From an uncultured Candidatus Saccharibacteria bacterium (GTDB lineage Bacteria > Patescibacteriota > Minisyncoccia > 2-02-FULL-40-12 > GWA2-44-9): a DNA stretch of 64,000 bases. Both the position numbers and the translations under genes were made by a program. Positions 5,408 through 52,988 of the stretch are shown piece after piece (position 1 is the stretch's first letter; each line of letters starts with the position of its first letter). The notes under the pieces are model-generated. The model worked only from the letters and a program-made list of their open reading frames with translations. It did no database searches and was not told where the DNA came from. The stretch is taken from contig CAYHIK010000003.1 in assembly GCA_964356795.1 (NCBI GenBank), positions 19,004 through 83,003 on the forward strand. The letters are read 5' to 3'.

Positions 5408-6469
5408 CTACAGCATCTTCTTGAGTTCGGATGGGTTGTTGGAGAACAGCTCTCCGTTCTCGGGGGTAATCTGACCACTTTTTACGAGTTGTGCGAGTGA
5501 ATAGTTGAGCGACATCATTCCCTCATTGAGTCCTGTTTGAATGACCGAGTCGATTGAGTATACCTTTTTTTCGCGAATGAGATTGCGAATCGCAGCATTG
5601 GTAATCATAATCTCGAGCGCGGGGACTCGACCGCCCCCAATTTTGGGAACAAGGCGTTCCGAGACGACCGCAACGACCGTTGTGGCGGTTTGGGCAATGA
5701 TTTGATCTTGTTGAGATGGCGGAAATGAGTCAATGATGCGATCGATTGTTTGAGCGGCTGAGTTTGTGTGAAGCGTTGAGAAGACGAGGTGTCCCGTTTC
5801 AGCCGCGGTCATAGCTGCGGCGATAGAATCGGCGTCGCGCATCTCTCCAACCATGATGACGTCGGGATCTTGTCGTAATACGGTTTTGAGGCCATCGGCA
5901 AATGAAAGCACGTCGGTGCCGACCTCTCGCTGGGATACGATGCCATTCGCTTGCTCGTAGAGGTACTCTATCGGATCCTCAATTGTAACGATGTGCGCTG
6001 TGCGGGTTCGATTCACCTCATCAAGAATTGCGGCTGTGGTTGTGGACTTTCCGTGACCAGCGGGCCCCACCATAAGAATGAATCCCTGCGTGAGCTTTGC
6101 GAATGTATGAAGAATTGGGGGAAGGTTGAGCTCCTCGATAGTTTGTATTTTTGCGGGGACAAGTCGGAGTGAGGCGGACCACGTGTTCTCTTCGAAGTAG
6201 GCATTTACGCGAAAGCGAACGCCCCCCGATCCTTCATATGCGAAATCAATTTGACGCTCTTTCAAGAAGCGTTCTCGTTGCTGAGGCGTCATAAGCTCTG
6301 AGATGATGCCCTCAGCGGATTGTGTGGTGATGACCTCCTCGGATTCAATTGGTTGCAAATCGCCATAGATACGAAGGGTGGGTCGCTTATCTACGGCAAT
6401 ATGAACATCGGATGCATTCTGGGCGATTGCGCGGTCGAGAATTGTTTTGAGAGCAGAGTCGTAGCTCAT
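5408..6469 (-). CDS. pilT: Type IV pilus retraction ATPase PilT (twitching motility protein)
   Basis: Walker A GPAGHGKSTT, the PilT/GspE family N-terminus and the AIRNLIRE motif. The start was refined to the ATG at 6469 (MSYDSALK...), giving a typical 354-aa PilT. Confidence 0.85.
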   Translation of the reverse strand: MSYDSALKTILDRAIAQNASDVHIAVDKRPTLRIYGDLQPIESEEVITTQSAEGIISELMTPQQRERFLKERQIDFAYEGSGGVRFRVNAYFEENTWSASLRLVPAKIQTIEELNLPPILHTFAKLTQGFILMVGPAGHGKSTTTAAILDEVNRTRTAHIVTIEDPIEYLYEQANGIVSQREVGTDVLSFADGLKTVLRQDPDVIMVGEMRDADSIAAAMTAAETGHLVFSTLHTNSAAQTIDRIIDSFPPSQQDQIIAQTATTVVAVVSERLVPKIGGGRVPALEIMITNAAIRNLIREKKVYSIDSVIQTGLNEGMMSLNYSLAQLVKSGQITPENGELFSNNPSELKKML

Positions 6470-6565
6470 GGATACGTATACAATACCACACGAGGAGTCG
6501 GTATGTATCCACACATCAGTGCACGCTCGCTTGTCCTCAGTGCGCACAAGGAGTATACCCTTCAC

Positions 6566-7063
6566 ATGACATTCATCGAAGCACATGAACTGACCACGCT
6601 TGGGCACCTCGTCGTCGCTACGTTGCTGGGGGCGGTTATTGGCTTTGAGCGCGAACGATCGGGTAAGATTGCTGGATTGCGAACGCATACGCTCGTTGCG
6701 CTTGGATCTTGTTTGTTTACGGTTATTTCAGTTCTTTTGTATAATCGCTTGCCGTCGATTAATGGTGTGCAGGGATACGACTATCATCTTGTTGCAAATA
6801 TCATTGTGGGTATTGGGTTCATCGGTGCGGGCGCGATTATGCGGAGGGATGACAAGGTGATCGGCACGACGACTGCAGCCTCTCTTTGGATTACTTCGGC
6901 GGTTGGAATGGCAACAGGATTTGGGTTTTATCGGGAGGCGCTCGCGAGCACGGTGTTGGTATACGGCGTGCTCACGGGCTTGTGGGAAGTTCAGAAAAGA
7001 ATGACGAAGAGTTCGAGCTTCCACAAGAATCCCCAAGACCTCAACGGGTCGTCGATGCTGTAG
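6566..7063 (+). CDS. mgtC: MgtC/SapB family membrane protein
   Basis: The GFERE...AGLRTHTLVALGS motif is typical of MgtC. The start was refined to the ATG at 6566, preceded by AAGGAG. Confidence 0.75.
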   Translation: MTFIEAHELTTLGHLVVATLLGAVIGFERERSGKIAGLRTHTLVALGSCLFTVISVLLYNRLPSINGVQGYDYHLVANIIVGIGFIGAGAIMRRDDKVIGTTTAASLWITSAVGMATGFGFYREALASTVLVYGVLTGLWEVQKRMTKSSSFHKNPQDLNGSSML

Positions 7064-9236: not shown

Positions 9237-10601
9237 CTAGAGGAAGTCTGAATCAGTGTGTACGGTGTCGATCTCGGAGAACTCGAGGTTTTCTGGATTG
9301 ATATGGAAATCGATGTCTCCCGTGGGTCCATTGCGGTGCTTTGCAATCATGAGCTGGGCAAGATTCGAGCGACCCTCTTCTTGTGCACGTTGGAAGTTTA
9401 TTTTGTCTTCGCGATGGATAAACATAACAACGTCAGCATCTTGCTCGATGGATCCAGAGTCTCGAAGGTCGGAAAGTCGTGGTCTATTGCCTTCACGGTT
9501 CTCCACGGCACGGGAGAGCTGGGATAGTGCAATGACGGGGATTTGAAGTTCCTTTGCGAGCGCCTTTAGTCCGCGAGAGATTTCGGTAACCTGCTGGACG
9601 GGAGAGTCATAGTTGCGTCGCGCGCTCATTAATTGGAGGTAGTCCACGATGAGCAGGCCAAGTCCGTGCTCTGCTTTAAGGCGTCGTGCCATAGCGCGCA
9701 TCTGCATGACATTTAATCCAGGGGTGTCATCAATGAAGACAGGCATGTCGCGCAAAGAATCGATGGCATTTGTAATTTTGAGGAAATCATTATGCTCGCC
9801 CTCATGACTAAGTTTGCCCGTGCGAAGGCGCCAGAGTGAGGCTCGCGCTTTCGATGCAATAAGACGGTCGACGACTTGGTCGATACTCATCTCGAGACTG
9901 AAGATGCCCACCGGTACCTGGCGACTTGCAACGCGACTTGCGATATCGATAGCAAATGCTGTTTTACCAACCGAAGGTCGTGCTGCAAGAATGATGAGGT
10001 CTGATTTCTGGAATCCACCGAGCGTTGAGTCGAGCTTTGCGTGACCCGTTGCTGTCCCACGAAGCTGACCATCGTCTTGCGTTTGAATACGCTCCATAGC
10101 GCGATCAAGCTCTCCGGTGAGCGCGTCGAACTTATTGGTGAGTGTTTTCTGGGTGACGGCGAAGAGCTGTTGCTCGGCTTCACCGAGAATGGCATCTACA
10201 TCTTCATCTTCGCGATGGGCGAGTGATTGGAGCTGGTGTGATACATTGAGGAGGTCTCGAAGACTCTTTTTACGCTGAATGATGCGGGCATACGTTTGGA
10301 TGTGTGCGGCGGTGGGAACATCGCTTGCAAGCGATGTGAGGTAGACAACTCCTCCTGCGGCATCGAGGTTAGATGTATCGGACAGTCGTGTTCGAACTGA
10401 GAGGAGGTCAATATTTTCATGCTTCTCCCAGAGTTCGGTGATGGCATTCCAGATGAGCTGATTGCTTCGCTGGTAAAAATGATCGCCTTGTATCATATCA
10501 ACGACGCGGTTGATTGCTTCTCGATCAGTAAGGAGTGCGCCTAAAAGCGACTTTTCGGCATCGATATTCTGAGGGGGAAGTTTGTCTGATAATGAATTCA
10601 T
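9237..10601 (-). CDS. dnaB: Replicative DNA helicase DnaB
   Basis: DnaB N-terminal domain and the RecA-like Walker A ARPSVGKTAFAI. 454 aa. Confidence 0.9.
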   Translation of the reverse strand: MNSLSDKLPPQNIDAEKSLLGALLTDREAINRVVDMIQGDHFYQRSNQLIWNAITELWEKHENIDLLSVRTRLSDTSNLDAAGGVVYLTSLASDVPTAAHIQTYARIIQRKKSLRDLLNVSHQLQSLAHREDEDVDAILGEAEQQLFAVTQKTLTNKFDALTGELDRAMERIQTQDDGQLRGTATGHAKLDSTLGGFQKSDLIILAARPSVGKTAFAIDIASRVASRQVPVGIFSLEMSIDQVVDRLIASKARASLWRLRTGKLSHEGEHNDFLKITNAIDSLRDMPVFIDDTPGLNVMQMRAMARRLKAEHGLGLLIVDYLQLMSARRNYDSPVQQVTEISRGLKALAKELQIPVIALSQLSRAVENREGNRPRLSDLRDSGSIEQDADVVMFIHREDKINFQRAQEEGRSNLAQLMIAKHRNGPTGDIDFHINPENLEFSEIDTVHTDSDFL

Positions 10602-18314: not shown

Positions 18315-19115
18315 ATGAATACCATTGCGTATAAGAAGATTGGCATCATCGGATTTACTGTTTTTGTGGTAAGTCTCGTTTGGGCTACTTCACGGCCTTG
18401 GCTTGCGAGCCCGTTGCAATGGGATGGCATCACAACGATTCTTTGGCCGTCGTTGGCGCTTATCGTTGCTTCCGCAACCGTTGCCATCTCGTGGATGCTC
18501 CTTGAGCGTACCGTTGAGCGTGTGGCCGTCATTTTGGCCTCCTGGGCGACGTTTATCCTCTTTTGGAGCCCTGATATCTGGTACCTCACCGCCCTGCCTG
18601 TATTCGGCCTTTTATGGCTCGAATCGTCTCGGAGGGTTACGAATGACGTCGGAGACCGTCGAAGGCTTCGAATCTCGACCTCACTCGGCGCGGGGCTCTC
18701 GCCACTCCTTCTCGGAATGTTCCTTATGGTTTCATTTGGATTTTACCTTCTCCCATCGAATAAAAACGTTGGCGCGAACGATGTGAGCATTGGAATACAG
18801 AAGCAGTTGGAATCAGTGTACGATCAGCCGATGGTTGAGCGTCAGCTATCGCAGTTTCCGGCCGCAATGCAGTCGCAGGTAAAGCGAGATATCGCAAAGG
18901 TCGTCGACGAGAATGTACAGCGCTTTGTTGGTCCGCTGGGGCCGTTTATTCCCCCTATGCTCGCCTTTGGATTATTCCTCATTCTCTGGTCGGTGATGTT
19001 TATCTTCCGTGAATTGAGTATCTGGATGGGCGTGGCCATCTTCTCCATCCTCAAGACCGTCGGATTCGTACGTGTAGGAACGAAAGATGTTCAGGCTCAG
19101 ATTATTGAACTATAG
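18315..19115 (+). CDS. Hypothetical polytopic membrane protein (266 aa) between dnaK and dnaJ
   Basis: About six hydrophobic helices. No motif recognised. Its stop is 2 nt before the dnaJ ATG. Confidence 0.55.
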   Translation: MNTIAYKKIGIIGFTVFVVSLVWATSRPWLASPLQWDGITTILWPSLALIVASATVAISWMLLERTVERVAVILASWATFILFWSPDIWYLTALPVFGLLWLESSRRVTNDVGDRRRLRISTSLGAGLSPLLLGMFLMVSFGFYLLPSNKNVGANDVSIGIQKQLESVYDQPMVERQLSQFPAAMQSQVKRDIAKVVDENVQRFVGPLGPFIPPMLAFGLFLILWSVMFIFRELSIWMGVAIFSILKTVGFVRVGTKDVQAQIIEL

Positions 19116-23572: not shown

Positions 23573-25480
23573 TCATGCAATAGAGCGTGGGTCAACATCT
23601 ATACTCCATGGAGGTGGAATGTAGTGAAGTATCTCGCGCAGGCGAGCGGATGAAAGCGTCGTACGGAGAATGATGTGCTGTCGCCAGATGCCATTTGCGT
23701 GCTCGACGAGCGCGGGATTGGGCCCCAAGAGCGTTGTTGTTTTCTGAGCACCGAGCGTCGCTATCACGCGTGAAAGTTTATCCGCTAGGAGCGCGCCCTC
23801 GCGTTGTACGTGGATGCGCTGGGGTGATTTATACGTGAGCTTGATGAGGCGCGCAAATGGTGGCCATTGGAATTGCTTGCGCTGTATGAGTTCGGTTTCA
23901 TAGAATGAGCTCCAATCTCGATTCGCGAGATTACCAATAGGGGATTGCTCTTCTATACTCTGAACGATCATCTCCTTCGGTGTAAAGTCAGCAAGTTTCT
24001 CCAGGTACGCAATAAGTCGCTCTTGAGACCGAAAGTCGGGATGCAATGAGAGCGCATCAAAGGATGGGACAATAATTGTGATGAATGCTCGGGCGTATCG
24101 ATGAGGGAAAATCATTGAAGTGGCGACGAGCATTGGTTGCTCCATATGTTCATACGACTGGAGGATCTCCTGCTCACCGCTTCGTGAACGAACGAGATCT
24201 GAATCAAGTATGGGAATGTTCTGAATCGAAAAGCCGAATCTATCCAAGAGCGACTTGATTCCCGTTGCCAGTTTTTGACTTCCCGGAATGCCTGACGGCG
24301 CATATGCCCCCGCGCGACAGAGTGGGCACTGCCGTGGCACGCGAATAAATGCTGTGCAGTGATAGCACACGAGCATGTCTTCACTTGTGCGGTGCCATCG
24401 CATTGGAATATCGCAGGTAGCGCAAAGGTGCGGGCGCTTGCAGGCGCCGCAGCGCGCGATGGTTGCAAATCCTTTTCGGGGAGACAGGACAAGGAGTGGG
24501 GTGTGTGCCTCGTATGCATCGAGGATTGCTGTTTGTGCGCGTCTTGAGAATAGCGATGTGTTGCCCGCGGCCCGCTCCTCCGGCATGGATACGAATTGCA
24601 CTGTTGGCCAATAGGGCTTTTGGTCAGAGAGCTCAATAGATTTGCGCCCTACTAAATGATGATGCACGGTGCTTTGCGATGGTGTGCACCAGGTGAGTTC
24701 CGCTCCGTATTGTGAGGCAACGAATCGTGCAACATCTGGTGCATTTGTGCGCGGCGACATTTCAGATTTATATGATTCGTTGAGCGGGTCCTCGACGATG
24801 AGGTGCGCGAGTGAATGCCATGGGAACGATAATGCGGTGCGGGTTCCTATGAACACCTCGGGCTTTTCAGAGCGCGTTGATACGTACGCATTAAAATAAT
24901 TCTTTGCTGAAAGTTCGCTATGAATCGTAATTGGGTTTAGGTCGTGCAGGCGATGTGCAATGTGTGAAGCGGTTGTAATGTCGGGAGTAAGAATCAAGAT
25001 GTGTCCCGATGATTTTGACGCTGCCTTCCTGGCTAATAACTCAAACGTATCAGGCTGGGTTAACACGAGCGTACCAACCACACGCTGATTCTCGGATGCA
25101 GGCGCACCAGTATTGAGGGGAAGTTGCAGCTGCTTGCCCCGGCGACCAATAAACGGCGGCGCAACAGTCTTCATCGCTGTCGCGAACGAGCACGCATAAT
25201 ACTCTGAGATCCACTGCGCAAGACGCAGTTGTGCCGATGTGATTTGCGGTGATGCACTTATAATCGAGGAAATCTTTTTGAGTTCAAATGAGGAGCTCTT
25301 CACGGCGAGCTTCACGCGACGGATGTCGTCAGACGAAAGCACTACCGCGGGCACAGTGCGCCGTCCGAGCGAGATGCCAATAATCGCACCAACGGCAATA
25401 TCTTCGGTCCAAAAATAATCGAATACCGATGGGGTGTGAGCAGGAAGGGGGGTCAGCGGTACGGTACGAATGAGGTGCAT
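23573..25480 (-). CDS. priA: Primosomal protein N' (PriA) homolog with degenerate helicase motifs I and II
   Basis: PriA-like N-terminus and four CxxC pairs (CGACK...CATC...CYHC...CPLC). However, the Walker A position reads LVLTQPDTFEL and the DExH position reads LIVEDPLNE. Confidence 0.7.
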   Translation of the reverse strand: MHLIRTVPLTPLPAHTPSVFDYFWTEDIAVGAIIGISLGRRTVPAVVLSSDDIRRVKLAVKSSSFELKKISSIISASPQITSAQLRLAQWISEYYACSFATAMKTVAPPFIGRRGKQLQLPLNTGAPASENQRVVGTLVLTQPDTFELLARKAASKSSGHILILTPDITTASHIAHRLHDLNPITIHSELSAKNYFNAYVSTRSEKPEVFIGTRTALSFPWHSLAHLIVEDPLNESYKSEMSPRTNAPDVARFVASQYGAELTWCTPSQSTVHHHLVGRKSIELSDQKPYWPTVQFVSMPEERAAGNTSLFSRRAQTAILDAYEAHTPLLVLSPRKGFATIARCGACKRPHLCATCDIPMRWHRTSEDMLVCYHCTAFIRVPRQCPLCRAGAYAPSGIPGSQKLATGIKSLLDRFGFSIQNIPILDSDLVRSRSGEQEILQSYEHMEQPMLVATSMIFPHRYARAFITIIVPSFDALSLHPDFRSQERLIAYLEKLADFTPKEMIVQSIEEQSPIGNLANRDWSSFYETELIQRKQFQWPPFARLIKLTYKSPQRIHVQREGALLADKLSRVIATLGAQKTTTLLGPNPALVEHANGIWRQHIILRTTLSSARLREILHYIPPPWSIDVDPRSIA

Positions 25481-25596
25481 ACACCTATTCAATCATATGA
25501 GTGCAAATACGCACGCATTGACGAGCGGTGTCTCGGGTTGTGTTATGTGTAGTTCGTGCAATTGCCGGGGCCGGCATTTTTCGATACCATAGACAC

Positions 25597-28145: not shown

Positions 28146-28180
28146 AAAACAGCCTCCCGTGGGAGGCTGTTGGGTATTTA
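28146..28180. terminator. Bidirectional rho-independent terminator
   Basis: Hairpin CAGCCTCCC-GTG-GGAGGCTG with A-rich and T-rich flanks on both sides. It lies between convergent genes. Confidence 0.7.
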
Positions 28181-28194
28181 AGTGAGAGGTTAGC

Positions 28195-28476
28195 TCACTC
28201 CGTTCCGTCATCTCTGGACGGATTACGATTCTGGAAGATCACATACGGGTCCCAGACCGTGATCTCGCCAACAGGATCCGCCTGCTCTGGATCCATGATC
28301 CTTGCCGTTAGCGTGATTTCGAATTCAGCATACAGTCCACTCTCCGCAAGCTCGCGTGAGAGCCTATCCGCCAAAATCTCGCCCGCGTCAGTCATTAGCT
28401 TGCGGGAGTCGCCCGCCAACCGAAAGAGTGTGCTCGATGGGTGCTCTTTTGGCTGTGGCCCGGTCTGTTTGGCCAT
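28195..28476 (-). CDS. Hypothetical small protein (93 aa)
   Basis: The ATG is preceded by GAGGTG. Terminator downstream. No recognised motif. Confidence 0.45.
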   Translation of the reverse strand: MAKQTGPQPKEHPSSTLFRLAGDSRKLMTDAGEILADRLSRELAESGLYAEFEITLTARIMDPEQADPVGEITVWDPYVIFQNRNPSRDDGTE

Positions 28477-28910
28477 GGTTCACCTCATACCTATAATACA
28501 ACAAATTAATGATATAGACAAGCGCTCGAACAGGGGAGTGGGGTAAGTAACGAAATACGCGTAACGTGAAAAATTGGCATACGAAGTCTGTGGGACAGTT
28601 TCGAGTGATGCTACAAACGTTTCGCTGTGTCGCATATCTGTGTGGCGATTCATACCAGATGCGTGCTCATTGATGGAACTTTTTAAATCAAAAAAATCGA
28701 ATCAAGAGCTACGCATGAATGAAGAGAGAATTGTGAGTCATCCCTCCATGGATGGAAGGAGGGGGTTAGGTCTGACGGTGATAAGAATGGGATTATTCCA
28801 ATTTTGGCCTAACTCCAAAAGCCCATTTTTTAAGGTATTAATAGGGGATTTACTTAGTTATCATGTCTCATAATCTACATTGTACGACGTAATGTAGATG
28901 AGCGATAAGG

Positions 28911-28943
28911 CCTCCCCCGTAAAGAAAAAGACACACGGCCTTC
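28911..28943 (-). terminator. Rho-independent terminator for the 28960-29367 gene
   Basis: Hairpin AAGACACACGG-CCTT-CCGTGTGTCTT with TTTCTTT following on the minus strand. Confidence 0.7.
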
Positions 28944-28959
28944 CGTGTGTCTTTGCGTG

Positions 28960-29367
28960 CTAGTGAATGCGCGCCACTGCGCTCTTCTTCTTAATCATCC
29001 GCCCCCTGTCGTAGAACCGGACGGTTACCCAAACTTCGCCAGCGCCACTAAACATCATTGACCTGGACACCGAGTATCGATCGCGTTGCTCGGGGGCTGG
29101 TGTCGCCGCCGCTTCGTTCACGCAATTCCCCTGCTCACGCTCAATGAGTTCAAACGCTGTCGCGTGCTTCCACTCCCACTCGACATCCGCGCACCAGAGT
29201 TCGTCGCTCATATTCTTGATGAGGAGCATTGCGGTGAGCCTTCTGCCATACGCAGAGGCTGGGGAATTTCTTGGGGTGACAATGAGCTTGATGCTGGAGT
29301 TCGGATCTTCTTGCTGATTCGGAACCCCACCGAATGCAAGCAGTGCTACAAGTGCGAATGCGAGCAT
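28960..29367 (-). CDS. Hypothetical secreted/lipo-protein-like small protein (135 aa)
   Basis: Start refined to the ATG at 29367 (MLAFALVALLAFGG...), a signal-peptide-like N-terminus. Contains Cys. Confidence 0.45.
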   Translation of the reverse strand: MLAFALVALLAFGGVPNQQEDPNSSIKLIVTPRNSPASAYGRRLTAMLLIKNMSDELWCADVEWEWKHATAFELIEREQGNCVNEAAATPAPEQRDRYSVSRSMMFSGAGEVWVTVRFYDRGRMIKKKSAVARIH

Positions 29368-29449
29368 GGCATCCCTCCTTCGGTTGCGGATTACGGTACC
29401 CCCGCTACGCCCAAGTGTCAATATATACCCTCTCAATGTGCGTGCTACA

Positions 29450-30157
29450 ATGCCGAGCATTATGTCGCGTATTGTTTTTGATATCGAAACAGTTGGCGTG
29501 GAGTTTGCCTCGCTCGATGAGCAGGCACAGGAATATCTCCTGAAAGCTGCGCGGACTCCTGAAGAGCGGGAGCTCGTACCCGAACAGTTAAGCTTCTCCC
29601 CACTTACAGGAAGTATCGTTGCTATCGCAATGGCAAATCCAGACACCGGAAACGGCGCGGTGTATTATCAGTCTCCGGATACACGTCAGAAGGATTTCAC
29701 CGAAGATGGCGTTACCTATGTTGCGGGCACCGAAGCTGAGATATTGAAACAGTTCTGGAGTACGATTTCATTCTATGATCAATTCGTGACGTTCAACGGC
29801 CGAGCATTCGACTGTCCGTATCTCATGGTGCGCTCGGCTATTCATAAGATAAAACCGTCAAAGAATCTTGTTCCCTATCGATATGGCGACGAGCACATCG
29901 ATCTCTATGACCGGCTCGGATTTTTCGGCGCTGTGCGGAGGACGATGAGCTTGCATATGTGGTGTCAGGCGTTTGGGATACGCTCAAGTAAATCCGGCGG
30001 CATCACGGGTCACGAAGTTCCTGAGTATTTCCGCGCACAGCGATACCAAGAAATTGCGCGGTATTGCTATGATGACATACGAGCAACCGCTGAGCTATTT
30101 GAGTATTGGAATACGTATATTAATATCCCCGACCATGGAGTACGATTCCGTCGATGA
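29450..30157 (+). CDS. Predicted 3'-5' exonuclease of the PolB-exonuclease-like family (COG3298/YprB-MrfB-like, DEDDy)
   Basis: Exo I IVFDIETVG (DxE), Exo II FNGRAFDCPYL (NGxxFD) and Exo III YCYDDIRAT (YxxxD). The start was refined to the ATG at 29450. Confidence 0.7.
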   Translation: MPSIMSRIVFDIETVGVEFASLDEQAQEYLLKAARTPEERELVPEQLSFSPLTGSIVAIAMANPDTGNGAVYYQSPDTRQKDFTEDGVTYVAGTEAEILKQFWSTISFYDQFVTFNGRAFDCPYLMVRSAIHKIKPSKNLVPYRYGDEHIDLYDRLGFFGAVRRTMSLHMWCQAFGIRSSKSGGITGHEVPEYFRAQRYQEIARYCYDDIRATAELFEYWNTYINIPDHGVRFRR

Positions 30158-30878
30158 ATTTCGCCAGCGCGCCGGGTATGACATAGATGGGACTTGGTAT
30201 CCACGCGTGACCTCGATTGTGTCTATCAAGACAAAGCCGGCCCTCCTACGCTACTACGGTGGGATGCGGAGCTTTAAGGCGGCAGATGACGCAAAGGAAG
30301 CGAGCGCACGTGAAGGAACGATGGTCCACGAGGCGGTTGAAGCTATTATGCGTGGGAATCACGAATACAAGCCTGATCCCCTCATACAGCCGTCTGTAGA
30401 CGCCTTTTCTGAATTCTTGAGGAATACCGATGTTGAACCACTCCTCGTTGAAGATCGTGTCGTGAGTCGCGAGCACGGATTTGCGGGGACCGTTGATATG
30501 GTTGCACGCGTTGATGGGCGGGTGGGCATATTAGATATCAAGACAGGTAAGCGTATCTATCGCGATTACGGCATGCAGACGTCGGCGTACGTTCACGCTG
30601 TGTCAGAGATGGGAGTTGTGCCTACCCCGACTACGAGTTGGGTGCTTCGGCTCGATCAGGCACGAACCTGTGAGTTGTGTGGGGTTACGCTTCGCACAAA
30701 GGGCGGTACGTTCCGAGTGAGTGCGGGTGGGAAGGGCTGTACGCATCGTTGGGGCCTCATGACGGGGCAGTTCGAGCTCCAAGAGCTATTCGAGACTCAA
30801 AAAAACTTTACCGCCTTCCTCGCGTCAAAAACTCTTTGGGAGTGGGAGTATGAGGAGTATCTCAAGATATTGAAATAA
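30135..30878 (+). CDS. PD-(D/E)XK superfamily nuclease (Cas4/RecB-nuclease-like fold, QxxxY motif)
   Basis: GTVDMVARVDGRVGILDIKTGK (D...D-x-K core) and QTSAY (QxxxY), plus a C-terminal CxxC...CxH cluster. The start ATG at 30135 overlaps the exonuclease gene by 23 nt in another frame. Confidence 0.6.
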   Translation: MEYDSVDEFRQRAGYDIDGTWYPRVTSIVSIKTKPALLRYYGGMRSFKAADDAKEASAREGTMVHEAVEAIMRGNHEYKPDPLIQPSVDAFSEFLRNTDVEPLLVEDRVVSREHGFAGTVDMVARVDGRVGILDIKTGKRIYRDYGMQTSAYVHAVSEMGVVPTPTTSWVLRLDQARTCELCGVTLRTKGGTFRVSAGGKGCTHRWGLMTGQFELQELFETQKNFTAFLASKTLWEWEYEEYLKILK

Positions 30879-30909
30879 AAAGCAACGACACTTTGTCGTT
30901 GCTGGGAAG

Positions 30910-31359
30910 CTACTCATCATTGGATGGGAGCTCGCCTTCAGAAAGGACCTTGACTCTAAGGGTTTGAATGATGTCAGCTGCAAGATGCAGCACGCGTCGC
31001 TCGACGTCGCTGACAACATGGTGCGTAGTCTCGCGAATGAGCTTTGCCAGGGGGACGCTCTTGTTCGCAAAATATTCACACACCGCAGCGTCTTTGGAAT
31101 CTTCAATCTCTTTGTCGGCTTCTCGTCGAGTCAGAAGATTCGCGCCTAATCGCTCGAAGTGCAAACACCGATTATCGCAAAATCCTTCGGGACGCAATCG
31201 GTACTGACCCTCGGGAGATCCGTAGGGACAGCGTACTTTTGCATCAATCCAGCACGCATCTTTCTGCTGTCGATGTTCGTCTTCGTTAAGAACCACGAGC
31301 CCCGCCGCATCGGCAAGGTGGATGATTTGGTCTCGAAGAGCTTGCGCGTCCATTGTCAA
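30910..31359 (-). CDS. Hypothetical Cys-rich protein (149 aa; CW-x-D...RCPYG...GFCDNRC)
   Basis: ORF with a spaced Cys/His cluster suggesting metal binding. No family recognised. Confidence 0.45.
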   Translation of the reverse strand: MTMDAQALRDQIIHLADAAGLVVLNEDEHRQQKDACWIDAKVRCPYGSPEGQYRLRPEGFCDNRCLHFERLGANLLTRREADKEIEDSKDAAVCEYFANKSVPLAKLIRETTHHVVSDVERRVLHLAADIIQTLRVKVLSEGELPSNDE

Positions 31360-31376: not shown

Positions 31377-31775
31377 TCATTCGGTGCAATTGCCGGCAAG
31401 CGAGTAACCGGCTGACTGGGCATCTTCAGGCGAGGGAAACCAAACGCGGTTCGATTCTTTGATGGTGGAGGCCCCCGAGCACCATGTGAAGTGGTATTTC
31501 TTTGATGATGATAGCTTTGAGGCAACAACGCGTCGGTCTGAGTGGTCCACATTTGACTGGCGACTCCCCTGCTTTACACTGGGCTCTGGAGTTTTGGACT
31601 GTTCCACGGGTATGCGAAACAGTGCCTGTTCTTGGGCTGGAATGGCGCCGTACCGTGTCGCAATGACGCCTAGATTAAAGGCTGACCAGGAGCACCCGAG
31701 AAGAATGAGGAGTCTCCAGATGTCCTCTCTGTGGGATTTGACGATGTCTCGTATCTTTGCTATTATGGTGCTCAC
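31377..31775 (-). CDS. Membrane-anchored protein with a C-terminal Ada-type Zn-binding-like domain
   Basis: N-terminal TM helix. The C-terminal YHFTWCSGASTIKESNRVWFPSPEDAQSAGYSLAGNC resembles the Ada N-terminal metal-binding domain (YH-x-C...ENRV-FF...A-AGY-PC). Confidence 0.5.
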   Translation of the reverse strand: MSTIIAKIRDIVKSHREDIWRLLILLGCSWSAFNLGVIATRYGAIPAQEQALFRIPVEQSKTPEPSVKQGSRQSNVDHSDRRVVASKLSSSKKYHFTWCSGASTIKESNRVWFPSPEDAQSAGYSLAGNCTE

Positions 31776-47408: not shown

Positions 47409-49379
47409 TCAATAACTCTCGGGGACAGCCGCGTCGTATTGGATGTCTACGAGGATTTTGGATAATTCCGAGGGTACGGAGCGGACCCAAAATGGAGAAA
47501 GCGAGATGGTGGCTGATCGGAACTCCTCCTTATTTCTAAAGAATTCGCGGACACGTTCCCCCTCCTTACCGGCGATACTCTTCTTAACGAGTTCGATATC
47601 AATGGGCTTAAATGCGGTCCCTTTGATGCGCACCGTAAAGGCAAGCGTATCAAGCTCTCGTTTCAGAGTGACATCGGAATAGGAAAGTATTACAAAGTCT
47701 GGTTGAACAAAAAGCCGAGCGCTGTTTAAGAAGGATTTTGCTATGAGCGTATCGAGATCGGAGCGCCGGAATGCCACGGTTGAAAGTGTACCAGTGGCGG
47801 TTACCGTAACTGCACCAGCAGCATCATCTGGCTGTGCGGTTGCTTGGATATCTTTAAATTCTGGCGTGTCTTGGTTCACAATGGTGAGTTCTGAGCCTTG
47901 CGCACCGAGCGCAGTCTTGATTTGCTCTTTCACTCCTTCGATTGCTGCTTGCTTTGCGGCGTCAAAATCGGCTTGTGTCACGACGCTCGATGGACCACTT
48001 GCTCCTCCGGTCATTGGTTGCTCCGAGCGACCGTAGAATTTCGCCGCCTTTTCGGTGTCCCCGCTTTCGCGGAATGCCACAATCGTAAATGAGCCGGCAG
48101 GAACGTTGTAGTCTGTGCCAGGTTTATCTGCAATAACATCAACGCTCATTGAGCCAGGTGTCGGAGTTCCCGCTTTTACTGTGCTCCCTGGAACGGTCAC
48201 TGTCTGGAGCGTTCGAAATACCTTGCCATCGGAAGATTCAAATCGTGTTGTTGCGACGAGCGACTGGGGACTCGAGGAGTATTCGTTGTAGATGGTTATT
48301 TTGCCACGAGCTTTTGACGCGACGTCGCGGGTGCCCGTTGCCTGAACAGTGTGCGAGTTAGTCTTGGTGACCTCGAGGAGCTGTCCGGGAAGCTTGAGGA
48401 ATGCCTCATCAATTGATGCAAATGTATCCGACGTTTGCACGGAAAGCGTGGTATCAATGGGAGAACCTACGGGGATAATTGAAACATGTGCGCTGCCAGT
48501 TACCATATATACAACAGCAGCGAGTACTACGCAGGAGCCGAGGAGGATTGATGCGGCGACCCCTTTTGACATATGCGACGATCCAACGGAGGCAGTCCGT
48601 GTGAATAATCGAGACCATAGCGAGGGTGTGTGCGGAGCCATGCGTCCGTGGGTGTTGGGACCGAATCCAACTTTATCTCGCCACATGGCATCGATGTAAT
48701 CGAGTTCTCGGGCGTTCTCAATCGCAACCTTCTCTGAGCGTTCTGCTCGGCCAGATGGATTCATAATCCTATGAGGAAGTCCGCCACGCACGCCGTCTAC
48801 AGCGGCTGCGAGTTGTGCCTGAATGGCGTTTTCCTCGGCTGATAGCGAGCGTACGAGCTCATCATTGGTCGCGTGGAGATCGGCGGCTAGTGGACGATCA
48901 GGCGCGCCATCCGCATCCTCATCTACGTGGTTTCCTTCGGCATCTTCGATGTGCATTGTGGGCAAGAGGTCTTCATCTTCTTCTTTTGATGACCCCATCG
49001 TTTCATCGGATGTAAGCGGGGTCGCGTCACCAAGGTCGGCGGTATCATTGAAGTCCTGCATGTCGTCGTCGGCTGGGAGTGGTTGGGTTGTGAGCGTCGC
49101 CTTCACTGGCTTTTCGGCCTTGCTCTTACCGGCTGACATAACATTAAACCCGAATTTTCGGGCTAGTTGGGCTGTGAGCGGATTTGCGGTGAGGATGGAG
49201 ACCGTTTTTGCACCTTGCGTGGATTCTGCTGCAAAGGCTGCAAAATGATCTTCGTGTCGAAAGAGCTTCCCATTACGAGGAAGCACCAAGATAACCTCTC
49301 CAGCAGCCGCCTTTCGAAATAGCTCAAGGATATCGTTGAACGAGTCATCCTTAAGTACATTGATAATTTTGACGCTCAT
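47409..49379 (-). CDS. Hypothetical large membrane protein (656 aa) with three regions: a cytoplasmic N-domain, an acidic linker/TM segment, and an extracytoplasmic beta-rich domain
   Basis: Start refined to the ATG at 49379. One TM helix around VAASILLGSCVVLAAVVYMV. No family recognised. Confidence 0.55.
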   Translation of the reverse strand: MSVKIINVLKDDSFNDILELFRKAAAGEVILVLPRNGKLFRHEDHFAAFAAESTQGAKTVSILTANPLTAQLARKFGFNVMSAGKSKAEKPVKATLTTQPLPADDDMQDFNDTADLGDATPLTSDETMGSSKEEDEDLLPTMHIEDAEGNHVDEDADGAPDRPLAADLHATNDELVRSLSAEENAIQAQLAAAVDGVRGGLPHRIMNPSGRAERSEKVAIENARELDYIDAMWRDKVGFGPNTHGRMAPHTPSLWSRLFTRTASVGSSHMSKGVAASILLGSCVVLAAVVYMVTGSAHVSIIPVGSPIDTTLSVQTSDTFASIDEAFLKLPGQLLEVTKTNSHTVQATGTRDVASKARGKITIYNEYSSSPQSLVATTRFESSDGKVFRTLQTVTVPGSTVKAGTPTPGSMSVDVIADKPGTDYNVPAGSFTIVAFRESGDTEKAAKFYGRSEQPMTGGASGPSSVVTQADFDAAKQAAIEGVKEQIKTALGAQGSELTIVNQDTPEFKDIQATAQPDDAAGAVTVTATGTLSTVAFRRSDLDTLIAKSFLNSARLFVQPDFVILSYSDVTLKRELDTLAFTVRIKGTAFKPIDIELVKKSIAGKEGERVREFFRNKEEFRSATISLSPFWVRSVPSELSKILVDIQYDAAVPESY

Positions 49380-49459
49380 CGAGTGCGAATATTCAGACGA
49401 TTCAGTATACCGCACTCTGTGCCCACGTAAAACCCCTGAATGTGGAAGAATAGTGAAAA

Positions 49460-49488
49460 TTGACAAAACCTATATAAACTGCTATAAT
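49460..49488 (+). promoter_or_regulatory. Consensus sigma70 promoter TTGACA-17-TATAAT
   Basis: -35 TTGACA at 49460-49465, a 17-nt spacer, -10 TATAAT at 49483-49488, followed by AGGAGG at 49495-49500 and the ATG at 49509. Confidence 0.7.
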
Positions 49489-49855: not shown

Positions 49856-49989
49856 TGTCGCCCTGGGAAGTCATCCCTGCTCTCGCGGTGATGGCGATGA
49901 TTCTACTCGCGCGGCTCATCCCCGCGCTCCGTGCCCACTTCGGGTATGGTGCCAAGCGACAGCGCATCTACCCCCGACCCCGCGTCTAA
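49855..49989 (+). CDS. Possible small membrane peptide P3 (44 aa; GTG start overlapping the P2 stop)
   Basis: Hydrophobic. Its stop lies inside the terminator hairpin. Same caveat as P2. Confidence 0.2.
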   Translation: MSPWEVIPALAVMAMILLARLIPALRAHFGYGAKRQRIYPRPRV

Positions 49990-49998
49990 CGCGGGGTC
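49969..49998 (+). terminator. Rho-independent terminator
   Basis: Hairpin ACCCCGCG-TCTAA-CGCGGGGT followed by CGTTTTTATTT. Confidence 0.7.
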
Positions 49999-52988
49999 GT
50001 TTTTATTTCTATAACGTTGCGAAGCGTGCAATACGCGCAGTCTGTATCGGAGCACCGTCGATTCCAGAATGATAGTTCTCGTATTTCATGCGCAACACTC
50101 ACGATGGATTCCTCGAGTTCTTGCACTGCGGACGATGAGAGCTCAAACACTTCTCGGTGCCATTTTCCCCTATCATCGGGTTCGACAAAATCGATGACAC
50201 CCGTGTGCGTTTTGTATGTTCCGTCCTGCCAGCGGTCGAGTAAAAGTTTATAGAATGTAAGTTGCCGGAAGTAATTCCCATCGCCGTCTTTCACTGAGCC
50301 CACGATGTGTGCCCGCGACTTCGGCTTCCCTGTTTTATAGTCGATAACAATCACGGAGCCATCAGAGTTCATATCCACCTTGTCGATTTTGCCGTTCAGG
50401 ATAATCCCATCCCCTATTTCAACAGCAGGTATTTTGAGCTGGTTGAGAATTCGCGGATGCCATGTCGTGTGGTATTTCTCGTAGTATCCCTCGAGCGCCT
50501 TTCGCCCGCGCGCGCGCCCAGCTTCCAACTCGGACGATTGCATGGGTTGGTGCTGGAGGAATCGTTCGAACAACTGCACGAGATGCTCCTTTGATTTCTT
50601 CTCGCCGGCAACGTATGCGTCAAAATACTCTTGAAGCGCACGGTCGACAGCATTTCCGTACATGAGGGCAAAGCTTGAGGCTTCGGGGATGCGAATCAAA
50701 TTTGTGTAGAAGTATCGCCACGGACAGGTGAGGTAATTATTGAGCGCCGTTACCGATAACCCGTACCGATTAAATAATTCATTGAGAAATGTCTTATCGG
50801 TAGCAAGGGGGACGCGCTGGGGTGCGGCATCGAATCGTTTTGATTGCTCCTGAAGCCATAATGCTCGAAAAGCGTTGGTATCGATATGCGATACAAGCGT
50901 TGGATTGATGTCTGAAATATACCGAGCAGGGAGCTCTTCTCCGCCGTCGAGCGTGTGCGTGCTGTGCGCTATGACGACTTCGTGTCGTGCACGCGTCAGG
51001 GCGACGTAAAATAGGTTCCGTTCGTCGTCATCATCCTCGATTGGCGCAGTTGCGCGTGATTGGACGAAGAGCGAAGGAGGTAGCTTGATGAGTTCTCGTC
51101 GCTTACGAGAGCCCCACCGACTATCAACTGTGTCTATGATGTATACATATGAAAACTCAAGCCCCTTACTCTTGTGCACAGTCATAACACGCACGCGATG
51201 TGGTGCGAGCGCGCCCTGAGGAGCGTGTACGGGGATACGATGCTCGCGGAGAAAGTCGAGATGCTCCACAAATTGTGCGAGCGTAAGCGCGCGATTGCGT
51301 TGCACGTGCGAGCGGAGCATATCGTAGAATGCGTGGAGTCGCGCAAGAGAATCAGGCGCATCGACGCTACGCAAAAGCGACGCAAGCACACCGGACTCTC
51401 GAATAATCGTCTCAAGCGCCTCTGTGGACTCGGGCTGCGCCATGAGTCGTGACCAGTGCGTCATGCGACTCGCAAGCTGTTGAAGTGCGTCGGGGTATTC
51501 AATGCCCGCTTCATGCATGGCGGGAGAAGATCGCATGATATCGTACGGATTTCTACCACCTCGACAGCATTCGATGAGTTTGTATACGTCGAGCGGATCA
51601 ATAGCGAGTACGGGAGTATGGAGCGCCTCATAGAGCGGTCGCGACTCTCCGAACGCTCGCACCGCATCAAGGATGAGTGTGAGCTGGTGAAGATACGGGT
51701 CCGAGAGCGCATCTTGTTGCGAGGAAATAGAATAGGGAACGGCTTGGCGTTGGAGAAACTCCGCGATACGCGCGACTCCTGCGTTGTCTCGCACGAGGAC
51801 TGCAATATCATCGGGACGAGCTCCTTGCTCGATGCGTTCCGAGATATGACGCGCAATCATCCAGCACTCTTCGTCGGGGTTATCGCACGTCATGAGCAGA
51901 ACGGGCGTAGTCGACTCCCGTTCTGCCTGCGCCCGAAGGCCACTTCCGGCGCTCGGACGTATCCCCTGTGCCGCATCGAGGATGTGTTGGTGTGAGCGGT
52001 AGTTATCCTCAAGCTCGATGAGCTGTGCATCGGGGTACAGTTTTTGAAAATAGAGGAAGTTTTCAAGCGATGCTCCTTGGAACCGATAAATAGCCTGCTT
52101 CGCATCGCCAACTACGAATACATTCGGTCGCTCCCAAAATGATGCAAGAAGCTCAACAACTTTATTTTGTGCGTTGTTGGTATCTTGATGCTCGTCGACC
52201 AGAAGATAGTGGTGCTTTTCTTGGAGCATGAGGCGAAGCGATTCATCGGATGCGAGCACGCGTGCCGCCTCCATTACCATGTCGTTGTAATCGTACAATC
52301 GCTCAGCGCGTAGAAGCGCCTGATATCGTGTGTAGACGTCTGATAATTCGCGCACTTTTCCAACCTGCTTTAATTGGTCCTGATATGCTCCCTTCATAAC
52401 TCCCTTATATGCGCCCTTCTCATGATAGAGATCGTCGGAGCTCATCACGATAGATTCTTCGCGAGTTGCCACGTCTATAAGGCGCTCGGGCGTAATACCC
52501 TCTCGCTTGAGCGTATTGATGGCGCCGACAATTGCTTTGAGGTAGAGGTCGGGCGCATTCACGGGTCGCAGAAGTGGCAGCGAGGGGTGCTCCTCGAGAA
52601 TCCGCTGAAGATAGAGGGCTTGATCTGCTTCGGTGATTGATGCCGCCCCCGCAATCGCTCCAAACGACTCGGGATACTCTTGAATAATAGAATTACAAAA
52701 TGAGTGAAATGTGGTAACGGTCACGCGATACGCATCGGTACCGATGAGCGCGGCGAGACGCCCCTTCATCTCGGCAGCGCCAGACTCGGTAAACGTCAGC
52801 GCGAGGATTGCTTCGGCGGGGGTATCAGTGCGAGCAAGAATATTTGCGATGCGGAGCGTGAGAATATTGGTCTTTCCCGTGCCAGGTCCGGCAATTACCA
52901 TCACCGGCCCCTCGATTGCATCAACCGCCTCGCGTTGACGAGTATTGAGGCTGCTATAGGCGCTCTCAAATGCCTCAGTTGTTTTCAT
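49986..52988 (-). CDS. UvrD/PcrA-family SF1 DNA helicase fused to a C-terminal PD-(D/E)XK nuclease domain (AddA-like single chain)
   Basis: N-terminal AGPGTGKTN Walker A and the UvrD motifs. The C-terminal GKIDKVDMNSDGSVIVIDYKTGK plus QLTFYKLLL is a RecB-type nuclease core. 1000 aa. Confidence 0.8.
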   Translation of the reverse strand: MKTTEAFESAYSSLNTRQREAVDAIEGPVMVIAGPGTGKTNILTLRIANILARTDTPAEAILALTFTESGAAEMKGRLAALIGTDAYRVTVTTFHSFCNSIIQEYPESFGAIAGAASITEADQALYLQRILEEHPSLPLLRPVNAPDLYLKAIVGAINTLKREGITPERLIDVATREESIVMSSDDLYHEKGAYKGVMKGAYQDQLKQVGKVRELSDVYTRYQALLRAERLYDYNDMVMEAARVLASDESLRLMLQEKHHYLLVDEHQDTNNAQNKVVELLASFWERPNVFVVGDAKQAIYRFQGASLENFLYFQKLYPDAQLIELEDNYRSHQHILDAAQGIRPSAGSGLRAQAERESTTPVLLMTCDNPDEECWMIARHISERIEQGARPDDIAVLVRDNAGVARIAEFLQRQAVPYSISSQQDALSDPYLHQLTLILDAVRAFGESRPLYEALHTPVLAIDPLDVYKLIECCRGGRNPYDIMRSSPAMHEAGIEYPDALQQLASRMTHWSRLMAQPESTEALETIIRESGVLASLLRSVDAPDSLARLHAFYDMLRSHVQRNRALTLAQFVEHLDFLREHRIPVHAPQGALAPHRVRVMTVHKSKGLEFSYVYIIDTVDSRWGSRKRRELIKLPPSLFVQSRATAPIEDDDDERNLFYVALTRARHEVVIAHSTHTLDGGEELPARYISDINPTLVSHIDTNAFRALWLQEQSKRFDAAPQRVPLATDKTFLNELFNRYGLSVTALNNYLTCPWRYFYTNLIRIPEASSFALMYGNAVDRALQEYFDAYVAGEKKSKEHLVQLFERFLQHQPMQSSELEAGRARGRKALEGYYEKYHTTWHPRILNQLKIPAVEIGDGIILNGKIDKVDMNSDGSVIVIDYKTGKPKSRAHIVGSVKDGDGNYFRQLTFYKLLLDRWQDGTYKTHTGVIDFVEPDDRGKWHREVFELSSSAVQELEESIVSVAHEIRELSFWNRRCSDTDCAYCTLRNVIEIKTTPR

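Follow-up and report, generated by a model that had tools for sequence, protein, structure and literature searches.

A 64,000-nucleotide stretch of contig CAYHIK010000003.1 from an uncultured Candidatus Saccharibacteria bacterium (assembly GCA_964356795.1, forward strand, positions 19,004 to 83,003; hereafter the window) carries two overlapping nuclease genes, which raises the question of whether they form a functional unit and what such a unit might do. The upstream gene 1 encodes a polymerase-type 3'-5' exonuclease, and the downstream gene 2 a PD-(D/E)XK nuclease. The original prediction, made from the letters of this DNA, offered a compact DNA-processing module, a defence module, or one fusion protein split by a frameshift. 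The first of these is plausible, and we consider it somewhat probable that the locus is a housekeeping two-gene operon whose two DNA exonucleases, with polarities predicted to be opposite, trim single-stranded DNA ends and flaps. Both proteins fall in known families and the locus is no new kind of system. The upstream part of the locus contains the following features:

29462-30157, plus strand: gene 1, a stand-alone family-B-polymerase-type DEDDy 3'-5' exonuclease of 231 amino acids
29480-29488, plus strand: ExoI motif of gene 1, FDIET (D7, E9)
29795-29812, plus strand: ExoII motif of gene 1, NGRAFD (N112-D117)
30062-30076, plus strand: ExoIII motif of gene 1, YCYDD (Y201-D205)
29443-29451, plus strand: candidate extended -10 element, TGcTACAAT, read by eye, 11 nucleotides before the ATG at 29462

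Gene 1 belongs to PF10108/COG3298 and encodes, as an orphan, a domain of the type used for proofreading by family B DNA polymerases. Its product matches the Pfam profile PF10108 with 72.5 bits (cut-off 24, E-value 5e-20), and there is a secondary match to PF13482 (E-value 2.4e-12). The active site contains the DxE of ExoI, the Nx3(F/Y)D of ExoII and the Yx3D of ExoIII that define DEDDy exonucleases, and an alignment of 37 homologues shows no variation at residues D7, E9, N112, F116, D117, Y201 and D205. The AlphaFold2 model, with a predicted local distance difference test (pLDDT) score of 89.1, has a single domain. Among PDB structures, Foldseek places the model closest to archaeal PolB and Pol epsilon, in both cases to the exonuclease domain (E-value 3e-10, template modelling (TM) score 0.58-0.64). 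Archaeal PolB is also the nearest solved structure when the single sequence (E-value 1e-4) or the family profile (E-value 6.5e-8) is compared to PDB sequences. Furthermore, the protein matches phrog_403, annotated as 'DNA polymerase exonuclease subunit', with an E-value of 1.8e-13. Gene 1 shares the profile, DEDDy residues and PolB exonuclease fold of PF10108/COG3298 and differs from the family in no defining feature; the pairing with a nuclease gene, which is usual here, is not a trait of PF10108. The enzyme is predicted to be metal-dependent and to remove nucleotides in the 3'-to-5' direction from single-stranded or frayed 3' ends.

The start of gene 1 had been placed at 29450. This codon is an in-frame ATG that would extend the protein to 235 residues; however, the homologues and an identical database protein (P0001, 231 residues) begin at the ATG at 29462 with the sequence MSRIVFDIET. 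If the candidate -10 element is used, the mRNA of gene 1 might be nearly leaderless, as a tentative reading of the sequence. The element is missing from the list produced by the consensus scan because no -35 hexamer passes. The original prediction also assigned gene 1 to 'COG3298/YprB (MrfB-like)', of which the COG3298 part is correct. MrfB (YprB) of Bacillus subtilis is, like gene 1, a 3'-5' DNA exonuclease of the DEDD superfamily, the superfamily to which the secondary PF13482 match also points. However, MrfB is a DEDDh enzyme (His258) with a C-terminal tetratricopeptide repeat (TPR) domain and the helicase MrfA as a partner (bioRxiv 10.1101/2024.02.15.580553), and PF10108/COG3298 and COG3359/YprB form separate clusters in a survey of the RNase H-like superfamily (PMC3985635). 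In contrast, gene 1 has the DEDDy arrangement (Y201-x3-D205), its C-terminus lies approximately 25 residues past ExoIII, Pfam finds no TPR in it, and the match between the two proteins has an E-value of 0.82. We therefore rejected gene 1 as MrfB/YprB. In agreement with the earlier observation that a partner helicase is lacking, no helicase gene, such as one for the DEAD/DEAH helicase MrfA with its DUF1998 domain, is located beside the pair or in the flanks of related loci.

The downstream part of the locus contains gene 2 and its catalytic motifs:

30135-30878, plus strand: gene 2, a RecB-type PD-(D/E)XK nuclease, MGME1/RecE/phage-exonuclease-like, 247 amino acids, in another frame than gene 1
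30327-30329, plus strand: motif Ia of gene 2, His65
30495-30497, plus strand: motif II of gene 2, D121
30534-30542, plus strand: motif III of gene 2, D134-x-K136 (D134-I-K136)
30576-30590, plus strand: motif IV of gene 2, Q148-T-S-A-Y152 (Q-h-x-x-Y)

Gene 2 is a RecB-type PD-(D/E)XK nuclease with an intact active site. The protein matches PF12705 with 32.2 bits (cut-off 22, E-value 1.4e-7), so that both genes of the pair score above the curated Pfam cut-offs. Residues H65, D121, D134, K136, Q148 and Y152 are invariant among 39 aligned homologues. The AlphaFold2 model has a pLDDT of 93.4, and its best match among solved folds is human MGME1 (E-value 1.9e-8, TM score 0.59), followed by RecE, Dna2, AdnA and Cas4. 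When the profile of the gene 2 family was compared to all PDB sequences, MGME1 was the sole match (E-value 1.3e-6), and the profile alignment superimposes the motif Ia histidine, the motif II aspartate, D-x-K and Q-h-x-x-Y of the two proteins. These motifs of RecB-type nucleases have been defined, and Ia and IV are present in MGME1 (PMC6237815). Gene 2 is predicted to be a metal-dependent DNA exonuclease that acts on 5' ends or on single-stranded DNA. The database contains 1164 matches to gene 1 and 784 to gene 2, with conserved lengths in both cases, and therefore the two genes are real rather than chance open reading frames (ORFs).

Like gene 2, MGME1 is a stand-alone nuclease of approximately 250 residues that has no helicase. 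The long helices 47-72 and 82-97 of the gene 2 model are located in the region that corresponds to the helical arch of MGME1. However, the identity between the two proteins is only 16-17%, and MGME1 is a eukaryotic, mitochondrial protein without the Cys3-His insert of gene 2. MGME1 is the nearest solved relative of gene 2 and not necessarily its orthologue; by sequence, phrog_298 and bacterial PDDEXK_1 proteins resemble gene 2 more closely. The strongest family match of gene 2 is phrog_298 'exonuclease' (E-value 3.9e-33). Searches with tblastn retrieved phage genes annotated as 'exonuclease', 'Cas4 family exonuclease' and 'RecE-like exonuclease' with 25-35% identity, and the fold matches in BFVD are phage PD-(D/E)XK proteins with E-values down to 1e-11. 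The phrog_298 phage exonucleases of the Cas4 family or RecE-like type share with gene 2 the N-terminal 'YP(R/S)VT(S/T)I' and the nuclease core. In contrast to them, gene 2 is chromosomal, syntenic and vertically inherited, carries the Cys3-His insert, and has no gene for a recombinase partner of the RecT or Erf type nearby.

The description of gene 2 as 'RecB/Cas4-like' is accurate for RecB, and for Cas4 only at the level of the superfamily. Cas4 and gene 2 share a RecB-type core with QxxxY, and the structural matches between them are weak (E-values 5e-3 to 3e-2). The scores of gene 2 against the Cas4 models TIGR00372 (26.6, cut-off 65) and PF01930 (12.1, cut-off 22.7) are below the cut-offs. 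The four cysteines of the Cas4 iron-sulphur cluster comprise one N-terminal and three C-terminal residues, whereas residues 1-178 of gene 2 are free of cysteines. The identification of gene 2 as Cas4 was rejected because of the scores and the missing N-terminal cysteine. Neither the 10 genes that flank the pair nor the 19 Pfam-annotated genes of the window include a cas gene, and Rfam identified only two tRNAs in the window, in which no search for CRISPR repeats was run.

The fold of gene 2 is interrupted by a cysteine-containing insert:

30669-30746, plus strand: CxxC...CxH insert of gene 2 (C179, C182, C202, H204), a predicted zinc-ribbon-like pair of beta-hairpins within the nuclease fold

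In the AlphaFold2 model, the insert is formed by strands 167-179, 185-189, 192-195 and 206-218. Residues C179, C182 and H204 are invariant in the 39 homologues, and at least 90% of these have C202. The two ORFs, the three exonuclease motifs, the nuclease core and the CxxC...CxH cluster are as originally described, and the catalytic residues of both genes are invariant in their alignments. The insert is specific to the clade and probably binds zinc. Members of the wider family (P0261, P0264, P0267 and others) have a short hairpin without cysteines at this position. An exhaustive profile search with gene 2 identified 14,211 related clusters at 50% identity with E-values of 1e-3 or better, of which 3,850 had E-values of at most 1e-10 and only 39 of at most 1e-30. 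The wider family consists of nucleases of 200-280 residues, and the insert is common to approximately a dozen full-length clusters among the 39. Because insert-bearing clusters are so few within this huge family, gene 2 represents a narrow subfamily of the stand-alone nucleases of phages and bacteria, distinguished by its probable zinc ribbon.

The two genes are neighbours in approximately two thirds of the related loci, mostly with a spacing of at most 30 nucleotides. In GTDB genomes, with gene 1 as the anchor, gene 2 is located downstream on the same strand in 25 of the 37 loci, in 23 of them immediately. In a metagenomic count anchored on gene 2 and restricted to the 69 loci with at least 900 nucleotides of upstream sequence, gene 1 is immediately upstream in 44, nearby in 3, and absent within 4 kb in 22. 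The spacing could be measured for 68 of 70 related pairs, the other two being loci L014 and L016. It ranges from -52 to +545 nucleotides and is 0 or less in 21 pairs, 1-30 in 23, and 31-250 in 22. Such spacing is consistent with co-transcription and, in many cases, with coupled translation. The pair is kept while its immediate neighbours change, for example in loci L017, L024, L028 and L036, and each of the two proteins is strongly conserved, with 45-79% identity across the loci found. We read the two genes as usually an operon whose partnership is facultative.

If the pair operates in this way, both nucleases would be made from one transcript, and their translation would be coupled in most relatives, since the stop codon of gene 1 there adjoins or overlaps the start codon of gene 2. 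The products of genes 1 and 2 would together trim single-stranded tails, flaps and ends of both polarities without the aid of a helicase. The trimming would act in replication, recombination and repair, and would convert ragged intermediates into ligatable or extendable ends. The nearest precedent for such cooperation comes from mitochondria, where the flap cuts of MGME1 are imprecise and ligatable nicks are obtained only with the help of the 3'-5' exonuclease of DNA polymerase gamma (Pol gamma) (PMC4937333).

Several observations weigh against a working partnership. One gene is present without the other in about a third of the loci. In one subclade, a tyrosine recombinase of the XerC/D type (PF00589, E-value 2.5e-37) replaces gene 1 directly upstream of gene 2 within the same synteny. 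This is the case in loci L059, L062, L063, L074, L077, L080, L105 and others, in which gene 1 is absent within 4 kb; in the seven named loci, the recombinase gene is on the opposite strand. Substitution of gene 1 by another exonuclease was considered and rejected, as the upstream gene in its absence is the XerC/D-like recombinase or an unrelated one. Conversely, loci L022 and L032 hold gene 1 without gene 2 in the same synteny, and in contigs labelled Omnitrophota gene 1 is located beside TrpC/TrpF or ArgE-like genes. An opposite-strand gene for a glutamate dehydrogenase separates the pair in L014 (6837-8126) and L016 (1803-3128); the assignment of this insertion to the Glu/Leu/Phe/Val dehydrogenases was judged from sequence, without Pfam. 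Co-transcription is therefore not obligatory. None of the 15 viral relatives of gene 1 has a gene-2-like neighbour, and literature searches turned up no characterised member of PF10108. Moreover, the pair is not needed to replace AddAB, because an AddA-like helicase-nuclease is encoded 19 kb away. Finally, the adjacency of the two genes could be inherited order, because the whole neighbourhood is syntenic.

The last point leads to the explanation that survives best beside the operon, namely that the genes encode two functionally independent housekeeping nucleases that are neighbours by inherited gene order and do not cooperate. We regard this as possible, though on the whole unlikely. Synteny extends over the entire block, from GltX as far as the LytR-family gene, and the M23 peptidase, the ORF designated c5, and ribosomal proteins L27 and L9 are found with gene 1 nearly as frequently as gene 2 is. 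Independence is also favoured by the 22 of 69 gene 2 loci without gene 1 within 4 kb and by the 12 of 37 gene 1 loci without gene 2, among which L023, L031 and L033 are too short downstream to judge. In addition, gene 1 has unrelated neighbours in other lineages, and no fusion was found among the 150 best gene 2 representatives. On the other hand, mere inheritance of gene order does not account well for the 44 of 68 pairs that lie on the same strand at most 30 nucleotides apart, for the 1- and 4-nucleotide overlaps that are typical of translational coupling, or for the survival of the pair through the changes of flanking genes in the four loci named above.

A more specific reading is that the pair does in bacteria what MGME1 and the Pol gamma exonuclease do together in mitochondria, and provides helicase-independent clearing of single-stranded DNA in two polarities together with flap processing. 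The pair would then stand in for a missing RecJ, ExoI, ExoVII or Pol I 5' nuclease in the reduced genomes of Patescibacteria. The orphan PolB-type exonuclease might also assist, in trans, a polymerase without such an activity, by proofreading or by editing 3' ends, and the zinc-ribbon insert of gene 2 would be a docking or DNA-clamping element. We consider this extended reading doubtful.

It is improbable that the pair is a nucleotide-salvage module in which imported or damaged single-stranded DNA is degraded from both ends to mononucleotides. Nucleotides are not synthesised de novo in Patescibacteria, and a supply through the competence system has been proposed (PMC10633639). Both proteins are predicted to be exonucleases of single-stranded DNA ends that act without a helicase, and a PilB-type T2SSE ATPase is encoded at 5408-6688 of the window. 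However, transposon sequencing indicated that ComEC, ComF and DprA are dispensable for the growth of a Saccharibacterium (PMC10633639), and neither com genes nor nucleotide-metabolism genes are linked to the pair in any locus.

In the genomic context of the pair, PriA, GltX and an M23 peptidase are encoded upstream. Two small unannotated genes on the other strand are located downstream, followed by L27, L9, an S41 protease, glycosyltransferases and a LytR-family gene. This gene order is kept in most related loci, the guanine-plus-cytosine content of the region is uniform (0.48-0.53), and no mobile-element genes were found in the conserved block or phage genes near the pair. The locus is part of the vertically inherited core genome and not a defence island. 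The names on the database matches are those of Patescibacteria of the Yanofskybacteria/Paceibacteria type.

Nuclease pairs are frequent in defence systems. The original prediction included a defence module, here taken as an anti-phage defence or other conflict module of two nucleases. The chance of this is very small. Gene 2 matches the PADLOC models of Cas4 and DruK weakly (E-values 2.8e-7 to 2.4e-3) and is under the Cas4 cut-offs; gene 1 has zero PADLOC matches, and the components do not fit one system. The ribosomal-protein and tRNA-synthetase flanks, the uniform composition and the lack of mobile-element genes speak against such a module, as does the stable core position across loci that are 45-79% identical, which is unlike that of patchy defence islands. 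The neighbourhood analysis that had been suggested as a check of this idea thus revealed a conserved core context and no support for defence.

We give just as little credence to the possibility that the pair is a domesticated remnant of a phage recombination or replication module. Its attraction lies in the matches of gene 2 to phrog_298 and to phage exonucleases and in that of gene 1 to phrog_403. However, there are no further phage genes nearby, IMG/VR contains no orthologue of gene 2, no gene-2-like neighbour accompanies the viral relatives of gene 1, and the pair keeps its syntenic place in loci that share only 45-79% identity with the window.

The overlap of the two genes had suggested a single fusion protein split by a frameshift, which would be either a sequencing error or programmed frameshifting:

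30135-30157, plus strand: overlap of genes 1 and 2, 23 nucleotides, produced by the loss of the ancestral stop codon of gene 1, by which gene 1 gains 8 residues

The overlap is real, and the genes are in different frames as originally described. The junction in relatives reads ...ATT CGC TAG C ATG GAG..., and that in the window ...ATC CCC GAC C ATG GAG..., so that reading of gene 1 continues for eight codons to the TGA at 30155-30157. The change from TAG to GAC is confined to the lineage of the window, and its closest metagenomic relative (L040) still has TAG. Residues 226-231 of the added tail have a pLDDT below 50 and are predicted to be disordered. In all 70 related pairs, the genes are separate ORFs with their own stop and start codons, and all three relative frames are represented. 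None of the 68 measured pairs has a 23-nucleotide overlap, and in L014 and L016 the inserted gene places the two genes approximately 1.5 kb apart. Proteins identical to the two products are recorded singly (P0001, P0121). No homologues were found to be fused, either in the 70 pairs or in the 150 best gene 2 representatives, the lengths of which are 82-285 residues. The overlap is a trivial loss of a stop codon private to this lineage, and a frameshift-split fusion, which has practically no probability, is excluded by the junction alignment, in which the nearest relatives read TAG-C-ATG, by the 70 separate pairs, and by the lack of any of the 150 representatives longer than 285 residues. The two superfamilies are fused elsewhere: in COG2251 and DUF2779, a Cas4-like DUF83 nuclease domain is fused to an RNase H-like 3'-5' exonuclease domain (PMC3985635). 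These proteins combine the PD-(D/E)XK nuclease and DEDD exonuclease superfamilies as the pair does; however, they are single polypeptides with a PF13482 or PF11074 exonuclease and often AAA domains, whereas the window contains two unfused genes.

Other features surround the pair. The hairpin and the genes downstream of gene 2 are arranged as follows:

30881-30903, strand not assigned: hairpin with a 10-base-pair stem between gene 2 and the convergent gene 30910-31359, T-run on the minus strand
30910-31359, minus strand: cysteine-rich ORF of 149 residues, convergent with gene 2
31377-31775, minus strand: ORF of 132 residues with an N-terminal hydrophobic segment

The hairpin begins 3 nucleotides past the stop codon of gene 2 and has no T-run on the plus strand; both transcription units probably end at this hairpin. 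The 149-residue ORF is present only in the closest relatives (L002 and L003) and has no family match. The 132-residue ORF, which is kept beside L27 in 21 of 38 loci, contains the C-terminal Cys/His motif KKYH..WC......N..WF.....A...GY.....C. A relative of this ORF carries a weak 'ArfC' Pfam label; Pfam assigned nothing to the copy in the window.

The 1.3 kb upstream of gene 1 (28146-29461) are poor in genes, and their content differs between relatives:

28195-28476, minus strand: ORF of 93 residues
28954-28927: terminator with a 12-base-pair stem, after the gene of a probable secreted protein
about 28960-29367, minus strand: probable small secreted protein, which begins MLAFALVALLAFGG

The approximately 450 nucleotides at 28480-28925 contain no conserved ORF and no Rfam match. 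A non-coding RNA within the 1.3 kb was considered and rejected, since Rfam at gathering thresholds returned only the two tRNAs of the window. In loci L018, L021, L022, L030 and L097, the variable interval upstream of gene 1 or gene 2 contains free-standing genes of LAGLIDADG homing endonucleases of approximately 165 residues; the copy in L030, the sole one scanned, matches PF00961 with an E-value of 1.4e-23.

The wider region is rich in core replication and translation genes:

9237-10601, minus strand: replicative helicase DnaB
23573-25492, minus strand: primosome protein PriA
47409-49466, minus strand: ORF of 685 residues beside the AddA-like gene
49986-52988, minus strand: AddA/AdnB-like protein of 1000 residues with UvrD N- and C-terminal helicase domains and a C-terminal PDDEXK_1 nuclease (E-value 1.2e-29)

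For the 685-residue ORF, Pfam gave no significant match, and no resemblance to AddB was detected. Contigs that are 53-79% identical to the window in gene 1 (L002, L005-L007, L019, L020, L026) carry the labels 'Saccharibacteria', 'Planctomycetales', 'Nitrospirae' or 'Omnitrophica', and the gene order in L002 and L005-L007 is that of the window. As near relatives bear such disparate labels, some taxonomic labels of metagenome-assembled genomes look unreliable; the copies of gene 1 linked to TrpC/TrpF may be genuinely from outside the Patescibacteria.

Literature searches found no paper that describes this exonuclease-nuclease pair in Patescibacteria. Three aspects of it are new: the pairing of the two nucleases in an operon within one clade of Patescibacteria, the nuclease subfamily of approximately a dozen full-length clusters at 50% identity that bears a probable zinc ribbon, and the recognition of MGME1 as the nearest solved relative of gene 2, which means that MGME1-like nucleases have close relatives in bacteria and phages. 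A large part of bacterial diversity belongs to the Patescibacteria, and little is known about the maintenance of DNA in their reduced genomes. In this group, genes 1 and 2 are an ordinary-looking, uncharacterised DNA-maintenance gene pair, conserved and probably co-expressed, and they offer a concrete and cheap target for biochemistry.

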